The position numbers were made by a program, and so were the translations under genes. The notes beneath the pieces were generated by a model, which saw nothing but the letters and a program-made list of their open reading frames with translations, was not told where the DNA came from and did not search any database. A stretch of 64,000 nt of DNA from a virus (lineage: Duplodnaviria > Heunggongvirae > Uroviricota > Caudoviricetes), in the IMG/VR virus record IMGVR_UViG_3300037455_000543, positions 360,164 to 424,163 of that record; one strand, given 5' to 3'. This document shows positions 6,235 to 63,251 of the stretch, piece after piece; positions within the stretch are counted from its first letter, which is position 1; every line of letters begins with the position of its first letter.

Positions 6235-6852
6235 ATGAACTTGGGAAAAGATCCATTGTGCTATTCTAAAGCATACAGGCATAAGCTAAGAGAAATCTAT
6301 AAGTCTATTATTGATTATCGCAAAGCTAATCCTTGCAAAGACCAATATTTTGAAATCCATCATATTATTCCTAAGCATATATGCAAGAAACTTGGAATTG
6401 ATATGAATTCAATTAATAATAAGGTTCAACTGTCTGTAAAAGAACATGCGTTTGTCCATATGATTCTTGACAGAACACGTGGCTTTAAAGTTATTGGTAG
6501 TAAAAGCCTTAAGCGTATTGCGGAAAACAAGATTAATGGCTATAAACAAACTGGATTGGAAAAGGTAGGAAAGCCTATTCTTACTAGTGAAGATCGCCAT
6601 GTGATTAATCTTGGCCGTAAAGAAGTGCTTGCAAAATATAAAAAGAAAATCAATGACTATATTATTACCAAAGCATCGGCAACTGACTTTTATCATGCTA
6701 TTTGTGACGTTCTCAGAAAAAAGCTTAATATTCCAAACGAAATTGAATTTAACATGTCGAAAAATATTACAGGCCATTTGAGAAATAGCATTCCTACGGC
6801 ATTAACGTTAGGTTTATCGGTAAAAACATTGCTGCGAACTGAAGTAAAATAA
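6235..6852 (+). CDS. HNH-domain protein (homing endonuclease-like)
   Basis: EIHHIIPK...NNKVQLSVKEHAFVH. Confidence 0.7.
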   Translation: MNLGKDPLCYSKAYRHKLREIYKSIIDYRKANPCKDQYFEIHHIIPKHICKKLGIDMNSINNKVQLSVKEHAFVHMILDRTRGFKVIGSKSLKRIAENKINGYKQTGLEKVGKPILTSEDRHVINLGRKEVLAKYKKKINDYIITKASATDFYHAICDVLRKKLNIPNEIEFNMSKNITGHLRNSIPTALTLGLSVKTLLRTEVK

Positions 6853-27964: not shown

Positions 27965-28300
27965 TTGAACCACATATTAAAGTCTGATTCCTCGGAACGA
28001 AGACCAACTCAATGGAATTGTCGGTAGAGGGTTAGCCATTTTATATCTGGGTTCAAGGTATACTTGAACGGTTTTAGGCCGTTAAATGAATGAACAGTGA
28101 CGTATAGATTAGCAACCTATACATATAGCCGCCATGGCTTGACATGATATAGCCGAAGTACAGGATGACCGCCTCGTAAGCATGTCAGTAAGTCCCAAGA
28201 GATTGACACCATGAAGCTTTATGCCAAAAGTGACCAATCGCCTAGTTCCTGCTAGGCTTAGATCTCTCCCAATCGCATTATCCAAAAGAATGATGTTTAT
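27965..28300 (+). ncRNA. candidate structured non-coding RNA
   Basis: Follows hairpin-promoter; no credible ORF, raised GC, several hairpins. Confidence 0.4.
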
Positions 28301-54364: not shown

Positions 54365-54423
54365 TGGCATAGGAAGTTCCTATTTTTAAAATTAAATGGG
54401 TTAATTAGTATTACTTCCCGCCA
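54365..54423 (+). ncRNA. GC-AHA-N5-UUCCUA motif copy
   Basis: TGGC ATA GGAAG TTCCTA...TA CTTCC C GCCA. Confidence 0.7.
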
Positions 54424-54597: not shown

Positions 54598-54710
54598 AGC
54601 ATAGGTAGTTCCTATTATCAAACGTGTAGCTCAGTGGTTAGAGCGTCGGGAGCAATCTCGGAGATCGTTGGTTCGAGTCCAATCATGTTTACCAGAAGTA
54701 CTACCCGCTA
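54598..54710 (+). ncRNA. UUCCUA motif enclosing an anticodon-less tRNA-like RNA (54620-54694)
   Basis: Acceptor, D and T arms canonical; anticodon loop replaced by GCAA tetraloop; ends ACCA. Confidence 0.75.
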
Positions 54711-54722
54711 TAAAGTTTACAT

Positions 54723-54837
54723 GCGGAAAGTAGCTCAATTGGTAGAGCAGAAGTATTATGTTACTACCCGCTACACGCAAAGGTTGTTCCTATTAATGGG
54801 GAACTTTGGGTTGTAGGTTCGAATCCTGCCTTTCCGC
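54723..54837 (+). tRNA. tRNA body (Pro/His-like) with permuted UUCCUA motif inserted in anticodon loop
   Basis: Acceptor, D and T arms intact; ~48-nt insert between GAAGT and ACTTT. Confidence 0.7.
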
Positions 54838-54843
54838 CGAAAC

Positions 54844-54930
54844 TGGCATATGAAGTTCCTATTTTTGGAAATCCTAGTATTATCTTCGGATAAGAAGGGA
54901 TAAGGTTCAAATCCTTTTTACTTCTCGCCA
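54844..54930 (+). ncRNA. UUCCUA motif copy enclosing a T-arm
   Basis: TGGC ATA TGAAG TTCCTA...AAGG-TTCAAAT-CCTT...TA CTTCT C GCCA. Confidence 0.7.
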
Positions 54931-57604: not shown

Positions 57605-59738
57605 ATGACATACGAAGAATTAGTCAGTGATGAACGTTATGGTAAAATCTTGAAGCGTTGCCAAGAATTACCTATTGGAAAAGTTCTTGCATCTAATATC
57701 GATGATGCTTGGCCAGATTTGCCTGAAGAACTGCGCGAAGTACATGATGCTTATTACAATCCTAATGAACATTATTATGACTCTATTATCGATGTTATCG
57801 ATGACTATTTCTTGTATGTTGAAGAAGATATTACAGAAGAAAGTAAGAATAAAGTCCTCGATTATGCAATGAATCTTAAGGATATTAATCTTGTCTTCTT
57901 TGATGAATCTACGAAGGAATAAATTATGAATTATAATCTTTCAAGACTTCCGGGAACATACGAATTTGACCGGGAACAATTCGGCTTCAAGATAAATTCA
58001 AAGGTTTACAATGCACAAGAATACAGTTCTATTACGAACTGTTTTAGAGTTGTAGATATTAAGAAGAAAGACAAGTATATTGAAGCAGTGGATGTTATTG
58101 AAAATGGTAAAATGCATTCTGATAAGGATGACAAGTATTTTCATAAATGTGCAGACTATATGGTTAATTCGCCATTATATTATGATACTACGATTGGACT
58201 TTATAAGCCTACCCAGAATTATATTCATCTTATGACAAAGCTTGTTTTTAGAAAGATGATTATTGCATACCTTAAGAAAGAAGAAGATGTAGAAGTAGTT
58301 GAAAAATTGACAAATGAAAAACAGTTTAAAACTACATTTGTAATTAAGAATACTGAAGTTTTTAATGACCTTCATGAATATTTCTATGACTGGTATGTTA
58401 ATAAGACTTGTTCATATGAAGATTTTTTGAATAAAAATATAAGCAAGATTGGAAAAACCAATTATTTGATGCCTAGCACTGATAAGTATAAGATTGATCC
58501 TAATCATCCTGTAGAATTTTCAAATATAGCAGACGGACTTGATTGTGCAGATGTATATACTGCTTATCTTAATTTAATTAATCGTATTAAACAAATCTAT
58601 AATCAAATTGAATGGAAAGAACAAGAAAAGAATAAAAAGTTCAAAGCTGTAGTAATTTTAACTGTTTAAGGAAATAATTATGCCAAGATATGCGAAGAAA
58701 GGATGTACAAGAGCAGATATTATTGAAAAGATGCTTGACCAGCTTAAAGCAGATGGCGGGTATGATGAGGATATGGATGAAACCGACTCTGAACAAGTAA
58801 TTCAGCAGTGGCTTTATAATTGTGTTGCATATAGTGACATGAATCCTCAGATAGAAAAAGACTTGTCAAAGCTCGAATTTGATTGGGAAAATTCAGAAGA
58901 AGATTTTGAAAGTCAAAAATATGGAAAGCTTCCGGATGGAACATCGATTATCTGGTGTTTTGCAGGTGGAGATTGGGAGTTCCCTATTCATTTTGCCGTT
59001 TATATTGACGATAAGGACCATCTGAGAGCTTATATGCCGTTAGACGGTAATGTATATTGTCCAAAGTGTAAATGTGCTTACGGCTCATGCGAGGACGAAG
59101 AACATGAGCCTGAGGAAGAGCCTACGCCAGATTGGGAAAAGATGTATGCTGCGGCATGCAAACGAATTGAAACACGATAAGGTATAAAATATGAAATGTG
59201 CGATTTGTCAAGATCGATATGATACATTAAGTTGTCGTATTACAATGAGTAATGATAATCAAAGGCGTGATCCACAATATGATATGATTGTGTGCGAGAA
59301 CTGTTATTATAAGATTCTTGAAAAAATTATATTGATGGACCCAATAAATAAACGCTTAAATAAAGAAGAACACGTATGATGTCAACAATAAATACAGTTG
59401 TATTAATTTTAAGTATAATTGATATTCTGATTTTTTTATTTGCTCTTTTTAATTTCTTCTGTGCATTTTTCTGCAAAGGCGCAGATCGATTTGGGGTAAT
59501 TTTTCTCGGTATAGTAGCTACAATTTCCGCAATTGCTGGTTATGTAAGATTGCCAGACAAAGATGAACGTGTAGCATTATTTATGCAGATGAAGCCAAAA
59601 TGTGAGCATGAAACAGTTAAATGTTTAGAAGCAAAAGCAAGATGGTATAAAGACTCAATAGAATATAATATACGAGATACTACAGAAATTATAGATTCTA
59701 TTAAACAGGTTATAGATAAATATAAAACTGAGAAATAG
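57605..59738 (+). CDS. five hypothetical genes
   Basis: Coupled ORFs with SD. Confidence 0.6.
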
Positions 59739-59776
59739 GGTTTACAAAAGTAAAACAATTTACTATATTTAACATC

Positions 59777-59837
59777 GTTAAAGCAAAAAATGTTCCTATG
59801 ATGATATTTGCAAAATAGTTTTACATTTCGCTTTAAC
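59777..59837 (+). ncRNA. UUCCUA motif copy with TAT-TTGCAAA-ATA anticodon-like loop
   Basis: GTTAAAGC AAA AAATG TTCCTA...TA CATTT C GCTTTAAC directly after a promoter. Confidence 0.7.
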
Positions 59838-59842
59838 ACATC

Positions 59843-59953
59843 GGGGAAATAGCTCAGTGGTAGAGCAACGGTATTACGTTACGTAGTGATGCATATAACG
59901 TTCCTATTTCCATTTCAAGGCGTGTGTCGTAGGTTCGAGTCCTACTTTCCCCA
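59843..59953 (+). tRNA. tRNA body with permuted UUCCUA motif inserted in anticodon loop
   Basis: Perfect acceptor/D/T arms; insert TA CGTTA C GTA-GTGA-TGC ATA TAACG TTCCTA. Confidence 0.75.
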
Positions 59954-60067
59954 CTAAAAAATATTTTAAAAAGGGGTTGACAAACCAAAAACTTTTTACT
60001 ATATTTAACAACGTAAAATAACAAAAAACAGGAAAAATTTTTTATATATAATATAAAGGTAACGAAA

Positions 60068-60181
60068 ATGACTATGAACGTATTTGAACATGAATTTTTT
60101 GCAGCAGAACGTGCCGCAGCTGAATTCGCAGCTGCAGCGTTTGAAGCATTTTGTTCAGATACAGTGCATAGGATTAGGTAG
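60068..60181 (+). CDS. leader peptide 3 MTMNVFEHEFFAAERAAAEFAAAAFEAFCSDTVHRIR
   Basis: A10 F6 E5; precedes terminator and Glu/Ala/Phe tRNAs. Confidence 0.9.
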   Translation: MTMNVFEHEFFAAERAAAEFAAAAFEAFCSDTVHRIR

Positions 60182-60206
60182 TTAACCTAAATAAGTTTGA
60201 AAAAAC

Positions 60207-60241
60207 GGTTCCTGTGCACAAAGCGCAGGAACTTTTCTTTT
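60207..60241 (+). terminator. attenuator terminator 3
   Basis: GGTTCCTGTGC/GCGCAGGAACT + T-run; competitor GTGCATAGGA (60164-60173) pairs with 60210-60219. Confidence 0.9.
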
Positions 60242-60292
60242 ATACTTTGCTGGTAGTCCAGTAGTGGAGACACCACTTAAAAAACAACATTT

Positions 60293-60365
60293 GCTCCGTT
60301 CGGCCAGCGGTTCAAGCCAACCGACTTTCTATCGGTTAACCCCAGTTCGAATCTGGGACGGAGTA
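60293..60365 (+). tRNA. tRNA-Glu(TTC)
   Basis: ACCGA-CTTTCTA-TCGGT. Confidence 0.85.
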
Positions 60366-60375
60366 CTAAAAATTT

Positions 60376-60447
60376 GGGTCATTAGTATAATGGTAGTATC
60401 TCTGATTTGCACTCAGAGGGCATCGGTTCGAATCCGATATGTATCCA
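60376..60447 (+). tRNA. tRNA-Ala(TGC), bulged acceptor
   Basis: TCTGA-TTTGCAC-TCAGA; G3.U70. Confidence 0.8.
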
Positions 60448-60456
60448 CGAAAATTT

Positions 60457-60529
60457 GGGACTGTAGCTCAGTAGGTAGAGCGTTGGCCTGAAGAGCCAAG
60501 CGTCGTAGGTTCGATTCCTACCGGTCCCG
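60457..60529 (+). tRNA. tRNA-Phe(GAA)
   Basis: TTGGC-CTGAAGA-GCCAA. Confidence 0.9.
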
Positions 60530-60537
60530 CTAAATAT

Positions 60538-60611
60538 GGGCTTGTGGCGCAATTTGGTAGCGCAGTAGCTTTGCAAGCTAAAGGTTACGGGATCGTTCCC
60601 CGTCAGGTCCA
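60538..60611 (+). tRNA. tRNA-Ala(TGC)
   Basis: TAGC-TTTGCAA-GCTA; G3.U70. Confidence 0.85.
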
Positions 60612-60620
60612 CTACATTAT

Positions 60621-60693
60621 GCCTCGGCATCCAATCGTGGGAATGGACGGGACTGAAAATCCCAGAAATCCGGTTCGACTCCGGAACCTGGCA
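60621..60693 (+). tRNA. tRNA-Phe(GAA), atypical acceptor
   Basis: GGGA-CTGAAAA-TCCC; good T-arm, poor acceptor pairing. Confidence 0.65.
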
Positions 60694-60704
60694 CTAAACA
60701 TTAT

Positions 60705-60777
60705 GGGCTCGCATGATCCAAGGAGGCGACCGGTCCTTGCAAGACTAGTGTGGTGAGTTCGATTCTCATCGGGTCCA
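60705..60777 (+). tRNA. tRNA-Ala(TGC), atypical D-arm
   Basis: GGTC-CTTGCAA-GACT; G3.U70. Confidence 0.8.
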
Positions 60778-60789
60778 CTAAAATTTTTC

Positions 60790-60863
60790 GGCGCTGTCGA
60801 ATAACTGGTTCAGTTCACCGGCCTTTCAAGTCGGAAATTCGGGTTCGAGTCCCGACAGCGCTA
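60790..60863 (+). tRNA. tRNA-Glu(TTC)
   Basis: CCGGC-CTTTCAA-GTCGG. Confidence 0.9.
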
Positions 60864-60874
60864 CTAAAATATAT

Positions 60875-60947
60875 GGGTTCGCATGATCCAAGGAGGCGAG
60901 CTGGCTTTGCAAGCCGGCTGAGGTGGATTCGATTTCCACCGGATCCA
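60875..60947 (+). tRNA. tRNA-Ala(TGC), atypical D-arm
   Basis: CTGGC-TTTGCAA-GCCGG; G3.U70; D region identical to 60705 copy. Confidence 0.8.
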
Positions 60948-61114
60948 CGAAAGTCTACGGGTGGTGCCATTACTGTAGGCAAAGCATAGAAATATGCTGG
61001 TGATGAAGGAACAATACAACATAGGTTTAAATGCGCCTTGAGTATCAAGACCTAAAATTGGCTGAGAATCACGACGAAGTTTTGTGTCTTCGTAGGAATA
61101 AAAAACACATTTAT

Positions 61115-61188
61115 GGCTCTATCGTCTACGCTGGTTAGGACGCTAGGTTTTCAACCTGGTAAATTTGGTTCGACACCAAATAGGGCTA
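61115..61188 (+). tRNA. tRNA-Glu(TTC)
   Basis: CTAGG-TTTTCAA-CCTGG. Confidence 0.9.
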
Positions 61189-61193
61189 CTAAT

Positions 61194-61269
61194 GGGGGCT
61201 ATGGTTTAATTACCGCTCTTGGGCATAGTGATTTCCTACTTTTAATTGGTTCGAATCCAATTGCCTCCA
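61194..61269 (+). ncRNA. Ala-type acceptor+T-arm minihelix fused to permuted UUCCUA motif
   Basis: GGGGGC/GCCTCC-A with G3.U70; AATTGG-TTCGAAT-CCAATT; TA ATTAC C GC..GC ATA GTGAT TTCCTA. Confidence 0.7.
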
Positions 61270-61367
61270 CTAAAAATCTTGAGGGTCTAAAGTGAAGCCT
61301 GCTTAGACACGTATCAAAGAGATGATAAAAGACTGGTTGGATTCCAGTTGGATCCTTAAGAAATCAT

Positions 61368-61440
61368 GGTTCTATCGTCTAGTGGCCAAGGACAGTCGGT
61401 TCTCAGCCGCCTTACTTCAGTTCGAATCTGAATAGAACTA
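61368..61440 (+). tRNA. tRNA-Glu(CTC)
   Basis: CGG-TTCTCAG-CCG; Glu-type D arm. Confidence 0.8.
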
Positions 61441-61464
61441 CTATTCCATTAAAGGAAGTATTAT

Positions 61465-61794
61465 ATGATAACAGTGACACAAATTAACGATTTAAGAAAA
61501 GAGACTCAGGTTAGCATGCTTCTTTGTAAGCAAGCTCTTGAAGCAACAGGTGGTGATTTCGATGCTGCAAAAAAGTGGCTTCGTGAACAAGGTAAAGAAG
61601 TTGCTGGGGATTCATCTGCTTTTGGATTCACATTGATTAAAAATGGACAAGTTTCTGAACAGAGTACAGATAATAAGTTCACTTATTCCGACGGCCATAC
61701 AAGTATAGATATTCGCAATTATGGAGGTTCTACACCTTATACCATATGGGGCGGAATAACTGGACAGATAGTCCTTAATCCCGTAAAAGTATAA
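61465..61794 (+). CDS. protein with EF-Ts N-terminal (UBA-like) domain
   Basis: ITVTQINDLRKETQVSMLLCKQALEATGGDFDAAKKWLREQG. Confidence 0.8.
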   Translation: MITVTQINDLRKETQVSMLLCKQALEATGGDFDAAKKWLREQGKEVAGDSSAFGFTLIKNGQVSEQSTDNKFTYSDGHTSIDIRNYGGSTPYTIWGGITGQIVLNPVKV

Positions 61795-63188: not shown

Positions 63189-63251
63189 ATAGCATAAGAA
63201 GTTCCTATTAAAAAATACAGACTGCAAATCCGTTAATATACTTCTCGCTAT
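63189..63251 (+). ncRNA. UUCCUA motif copy with Cys-type (CTGCAAA) anticodon loop
   Basis: ATAGC ATA AGAAG TTCCTA...ACAGA-CTGCAAA-TCCGT...TA CTTCT C GCTAT. Confidence 0.7.

Follow-up and report, generated by a model that had tools for sequence, protein, structure and literature searches.

Attenuators whose leader peptides respond to more than one amino acid are well known from enterobacteria, where the ilvGMEDA leader serves Ile, Leu and Val and thrL serves Thr and Ile; hisL, pheL and trpL are further leaders known from these bacteria. The genes for tRNAs are, by textbook account, controlled at the level of the promoter, through growth rate and the stringent response. Here we analyse a locus of a giant rumen phage, termed unit 3, which an earlier note had read as an attenuator upstream of tRNA genes. 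Like the attenuators of the ilvGMEDA and thrL type, unit 3 has a short, putatively translated leader whose regulatory codons specify several amino acids. Its hairpin (1:2), antiterminator (2:3) and intrinsic terminator (3:4) have the same arrangement, and a ribosome at the stop codon would cover region 2. Our analysis, which was done entirely in silico, supports the attenuator reading in two ways: the sequence features that define a leader-peptide attenuator were all found in the right geometry, as predictions, and leader codons match tRNA content across the genome and covary with Val and Ile tRNAs in relatives. We estimate at roughly 0.7 the probability that unit 3 is a ribosome-mediated leader-peptide attenuator that would give demand-driven tRNA synthesis.

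The DNA under study (the window, 64,000 nucleotides in all) forms the final 64 kb of a virus record that is 424,163 bp long and has a G+C content of 35%. No cultured relative was found by blastn of a phage collection, which gave tRNA-level matches only. The Rfam cow-rumen-2 RNA has a full-length match at window positions 28096–28200 (108.5 bits), consistent with a rumen origin. The phage also encodes a tmRNA (genome C1:123310–123660) with an 8-residue tag peptide, which could act on leader-stalled ribosomes.

Unit 3 begins with a sigma-70-type promoter on the plus strand (59977–60005; −35 TTGACA, 17-nt spacer, −10 TATATT). It is near-consensus, matching at 11 of 12 positions, and the family of promoters to which it belongs has 31 strict copies across the genome. 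The A/U-rich 5′ UTR that follows (60013–60067, plus strand) contains a conserved box common to other leader units, and in two of these the box is identical to that of unit 3. A short leader ORF of 37 codons plus TAG (60068–60181, plus strand) comes next, ahead of the first structural gene. It is equipped with an ATG start and a putative ribosome-binding site, the Shine–Dalgarno-like element AAGG (60056–60059), approximately 55 nt 3′ of the promoter and 8 nt 5′ of the ATG. The ATG, the Shine–Dalgarno-like element and the stop position are all conserved, and the first two are unpaired in the minimum free energy (MFE) fold. No sigma-70-like promoter was present on the plus strand between the terminator and the tRNA genes.

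Codons 6–28 of the leader (60083–60151, plus strand) form the regulatory run and encode Phe (×7), Glu (×5), Ala (×9), His (×1) and Arg (×1), which bears out the claim of the earlier note that 21 of 23 consecutive residues are Phe, Glu or Ala. The three amino acids account for 17.5% of residues in the 343 long ORFs of the genome, and the enrichment test against the phage proteome that the note had proposed gave a binomial probability of 2.3×10−14 for at least 21 of 23. We rejected composition alone as sufficient evidence, because a six-frame scan of the genome found approximately 16 distinct places (~8 loci, several of which were scored in two or more frames or strands) where at least 21 of 23 residues come from some three-residue set. 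The other windows listed, the unit 3 leader aside, look low-complexity or repeat-like. Such a composition is thus rare and not unique, and the decisive point is the identity of the three enriched residues. Here the run is cognate to the tRNAs of its own cluster, which was its best match among the seven clusters of the genome, and the codon/tRNA match appears in the leader frame only. The His and Arg codons within the run count against the attenuator, as does a conserved Glu–Arg codon pair, since the cluster has no cognate Arg tRNA.

Seven canonical tRNA genes were found in 60293–61441 by ARAGORN and Infernal in agreement, all on the plus strand: Glu(UUC) at 60293–60366, 60790–60864 and 61115–61189, Glu(CUC) at 61368–61441, Ala(UGC) at 60376–60446 and 60538–60612, and Phe(GAA) at 60457–60530. 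Three more genes on this strand are non-canonical, namely a Phe-like gene whose anticodon loop is GAA and whose acceptor stem is weak (60620–60697) and two Ala-like genes (60706–60780 and 60876–60950), each combining G3:U70 with a UGC anticodon loop and an irregular D region; the middle one of the Glu(UUC) genes lies between the two. The earlier count of ten tRNAs, all of them Glu (×4), Ala (×4) or Phe (×2), is therefore correct in its identities and for the four canonical Glu genes, whereas two of the Ala and one of the Phe genes must be qualified as non-canonical. ARAGORN mis-called the non-canonical elements at lowered thresholds, and we therefore relied on folding and on the sequences of relatives to interpret them. 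The Ala-like family, with a third member at L035:10492, has the UGC anticodon, G3:U70 and an invariant non-canonical D region, and the substitutions by which its three variants differ in the acceptor and T stems are compensatory. This recurrence in relatives with compensatory changes indicates that the genes are under selection. The Ala-type minihelix of the note corresponds to a tRNA-like element at 61194–61272 (plus strand), which consists of a G3:U70 acceptor and a T arm and has a partial tmRNA-like match in Rfam. It is followed by a conserved long hairpin (61277–61361, plus strand).

Other elements lie in and around the tRNA genes of the window. An ORF of 109 amino acids (61465–61794, plus strand) opens 23 nt 3′ of the final tRNA gene of the cluster. 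Its match to an EF-Ts N-terminal/UBA domain is sub-threshold (29.6 bits, cut-off 33.2). The ORF has relatives directly 3′ of the tRNA arrays in L001–L004, so that it may be co-transcribed with the tRNAs. Two tRNA genes have inserts of ~40–50 nt in the anticodon region (59843–59953 and 54724–54837; Infernal 53 and 51 bits), and the former has its own promoter (59741–59769) and no leader ORF. Between tRNA genes, a short palindrome with GTTCCTAT at its centre is found repeatedly (54365–54385, 54598–54615, 54848–54865 and 63189–63205).

An intrinsic terminator lies between the leader and the structural genes (60207–60242, plus strand; stem-loop 60207–60233 plus T-run). Its hairpin, which begins 25 nt 3′ of the leader stop codon, has an 11-bp stem (6 G-C) and a 5-nt loop at a predicted −18.3 kcal/mol. 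The earlier note had also proposed that the end of the leader pairs with the terminator, and we could locate this pairing: region 2 (60164–60173, plus strand), the 5′ strand of the antiterminator, 6–15 nt 5′ of the stop codon, forms 10 bp, one of them G-U, with region 3 (60210–60219, plus strand), which comprises the 5′ arm of the terminator and two loop bases. Of 1000 shuffled versions of the leader tail, no more than 9 reached complementarity of this extent. Region 2 is positioned within the footprint of a ribosome terminating at the stop codon, a geometry like that of trp and his. A UAACCU element (60182–60190) directly 3′ of the leader stop codon resembles the UAACCUCC box and shows local pairing with 60174–60181.

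Folding predictions gave mutually exclusive structures. In the MFE fold of the untranslated leader, a long leader hairpin (regions 1:2; 60072–60171, plus strand), which would sequester region 2, occurs together with the terminator (z −6.9 against shuffles). With a ribosome at the stop codon, the terminator was the only fold predicted to be possible. Stalling was represented by removing the RNA covered by the stalled ribosome or 5′ of the stall site and by truncating the transcript before the 3′ arm of the terminator; under these conditions the antiterminator had −21.6 kcal/mol, compared with −24.5 kcal/mol for the full-length terminator fold. An antiterminator that excludes the terminator, a strand masked by the ribosome and a 1:2 hairpin are thus all present by prediction.

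From these features we infer that the leader is translated, that ribosomes stall on it and that read-through is regulated. Host RNA polymerase would start at the promoter at 59977–60005, and a ribosome would load on the leader. Where decoding of Phe, Glu and Ala codons is rapid, the ribosome would arrive at the TAG and mask region 2, the terminator hairpin with its T-run would form, and transcription would end before the tRNA genes. A stall anywhere in the 23-codon run would instead leave the ribosome within the leader hairpin and free region 2, which could then pair with the 5′ arm of the terminator before the 3′ arm is made, allowing read-through into the Glu, Ala and Phe tRNA genes. Newly made tRNAs would relieve the stall. 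Since the products are tRNAs that read the sensed codons, the loop would amount to negative feedback on decoding capacity. Were the leader not translated at all, its hairpin would hold region 2 and the terminator would form. The need to assume that transcription and translation are coupled in the host counts against the attenuator.

Seven units of leader, terminator and tRNA genes were located in the genome. We scored each leader against each cluster using wobble-decoded codon sets, and the resulting 7×7 matrix was diagonal-dominant: all seven leaders match their own tRNA cluster, and the true assignment was the single best of 5040 permutations at both the codon and the amino-acid level. Against its own cluster the unit 3 leader reached 0.50 by codon and 0.58 by amino acid, and no other cluster gave it more than 0.17. 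In another unit, ATA, AGA, AAA and CAA codons are matched with UAU, UCU, UUU and UUG tRNAs. The Val(UAC) and Ile(GAU) genes of this genome belong to other clusters, and the leaders of those clusters carry Val and Ile codons.

These results bear on the signal that unit 3 would sense. The same mechanism might answer to amino-acid starvation through uncharged tRNA and so tie tRNA transcription to the Phe, Glu and Ala supply of the host. A leader-peptide attenuator senses decoding rate only, and missing and uncharged tRNA are indistinguishable to it, as is established for the trp and his attenuators; the match, fold and promoter results for unit 3 do not separate the two states either. However, the match holds at the level of codons and so points to tRNA species rather than amino acids. 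Moreover, extra tRNA does not relieve amino-acid starvation, so that a tight match between a leader and its own cluster would bring no obvious benefit. We therefore consider starvation an unlikely signal, although it is the strongest of the alternatives. The match of the leader to the tRNA species of its own unit argues that tRNA supply would be the signal under selection.

To obtain relatives of unit 3, viral and metagenome contigs were scanned with patterns and with protein anchors. The metagenome pattern scan yielded mostly chance matches, and loci were kept only if a leader ORF was present. Two leader types were recovered. Type I, that of the window, occurs in L001, L034/L077, L068, L085 and L119, and its copies differ by three synonymous changes and, outside the run, by single replacements. 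Where type I clusters are complete (the window, L001, L034/L077 and L119), they contain Glu, Ala and Phe tRNAs only. Type II leaders, such as those at L018:1332–1439 and L020:1611–1718, have 4–5 Ile and 2–5 Val codons in the run, and the clusters behind them add Val(GAC), Val(UAC) and Ile(GAU) (G001, G002, G003, L055, L062, L089, L125 and L151; G003 without Val(UAC)). In L075, also with a type II leader, the Val tRNAs are present and the sequence ends just after them, so that the Ile gene cannot be judged. Ile(GAU) is canonical in L151, L089 and L020:2747–2823; in G001, L055, L062 and L125 it is represented by one or two atypical Ile-like genes, found only because the type II leader predicted them. 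In G001 two such genes lie in tandem (L019:337–506, minus strand). Acceptor stem, T arm and anticodon loop are well formed in these, but a normal D arm is missing and an additional insert is present; both ARAGORN and Infernal missed them.

Smaller changes follow the same pattern. The G003 unit 3 cluster lacks Val(UAC), which is kept elsewhere in G003, and its leader has GAA where that of G001 has GTA. Every non-synonymous change among the type II variants stays within Ile, Val, Phe and Glu, indicating selection on membership in the cognate set and not on the peptide sequence. Leader codons and tRNA content also changed together in other units: the Leu cluster has Gln and Cys tRNAs together with Gln and Cys codons in its leader, the Asn/Pro/Thr cluster a Tyr tRNA together with a Tyr codon, and the unit B leader of G003 has lost its Ile codons. 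Some observations on the relatives count against the attenuator. L032 has a type II leader (Ile ×4, Val ×3; reverse strand, ATG at 6317) and neither Val nor Ile tRNA in its cluster; this discordant unit is probably recombinant. Type II leaders begin with Asn and Lys codons that the cluster does not serve, and the unit 3 covariation comes from two clades and hence from few independent events. The distant relatives L002–L004 have a single array of ~33 tRNAs in place of sorted clusters. The array of L003 is preceded by a short ORF that uses 17 different amino acids and has a terminator behind it (L003:2632–2860); this ORF may be a generalist leader.

A second alternative accepts that the leader is translated and takes the output to be something other than classical antitermination. 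Stalling might trigger cleavage, processing or tmRNA action on the precursor, or translation might do no more than protect or expose the transcript, with the terminator acting as a constitutive partial stop. The phage has a tmRNA of its own and tRNA precursors are heavily processed, both of which fit this explanation. So does the slightly greater stability of the terminator fold over the antiterminator at equilibrium, which means that the proposed switch needs co-transcriptional kinetics and which also counts against the attenuator. Against this alternative, the complementarity between region 2 and the terminator arm is significant in five of the seven units of the genome, with sequences that differ from unit to unit. 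Further, the architecture of hairpin, antiterminator and terminator and the pairing of region 2 with region 3 are kept in both leader types despite their differing sequences. The 5′ arm of the terminator is invariant in all relatives that were recovered without it as a search term, whereas its 3′ arm and loop vary, as expected of a strand with two partners. We regard an output of this kind as improbable, marginally more so than a starvation signal.

It is very doubtful that the ORF is no sensor at all, being either a chance or structural by-product of a GAA/UUC and GCA/UGC hairpin or a small functional peptide, with the terminator ending a short early transcript: the Phe/Glu and Ala codons are self-complementary, so that a hairpin could yield such an ORF, and the genome has other low-complexity three-residue windows, but this leaves unexplained why all seven units carry codons of their own cluster, why the match is limited to one frame, why the ATG, the Shine–Dalgarno-like element and the stop position are conserved, why leader residues shift with tRNA content in relatives and why non-synonymous changes are confined to the cognate set. 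The complementarity of GAA with UUY and of GCA and GCU with UGC does count against the attenuator to the extent that the hairpin potential follows in part from the codon set.

Taking unit 3 as an attenuator, we propose, with odds only a little better than even, that the genome carries a modular ‘tRNA-stat’, in which every tRNA operon would be autoregulated by the decoding speed of its own codons and sets of tRNAs would be made on demand, for instance when infection brings degradation of host tRNAs or their cleavage by anticodon nucleases. The modules would evolve as tRNA genes move between operons and leader codons are rewritten to follow. If this is true, a codon-sensing attenuator that feeds back on tRNA supply would represent a new regulatory logic for the translation apparatus and would explain how large phages can reserve their tRNA arsenals for times of need. 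The ‘tRNA-stat’ would also be a natural, programmable multi-codon sensor. The rule that leader codons equal operon content can be used for annotating odd tRNA-like genes, as was done here for the non-canonical Ile-like genes, and for the construction of synthetic sensors of decoding speed at chosen codons.

The Rfam leader families (His, Leu, Thr, Trp and Phe) had no match at E≤1 in 59700–61500 and none at the gathering threshold in the window, and the T-box riboswitch covariance model had no match at E≤1 in 59700–61500. We also considered and dropped a possible attenuator upstream of the E. coli tRNA-Phe genes, as the regions upstream of pheV and pheU of K-12 have no Phe-rich leader ORF. Full-text literature searches found no published description of leader-peptide attenuation of tRNA genes, and the ‘tRNA-stat’ would be the first.

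The T-box riboswitches of Firmicutes resemble unit 3, as proposed here, in their terminator/antiterminator switch, in answering to the charging state of tRNA and in controlling translation-related genes. However, the T-box RNA binds tRNA directly, without ribosome or ORF, whereas the putative sensing element of unit 3 is an ORF. In E. coli pheST, a leader with Phe codons (pheM) and a terminator control a gene of the translation apparatus, with feedback on the supply of charged tRNA-Phe, much as we propose for unit 3. The pheST attenuator differs in that it is chromosomal, acts on phenylalanyl-tRNA synthetase and responds to one amino acid only. Compared with the attenuators of the ilvGMEDA and thrL type, unit 3 is phage-borne and one of seven paralogous units, and its run, at 23 codons, is the longer one and extends over the entire leader hairpin. 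It would control tRNA genes and not biosynthetic enzymes, so that its product would act directly on the step that is sensed.
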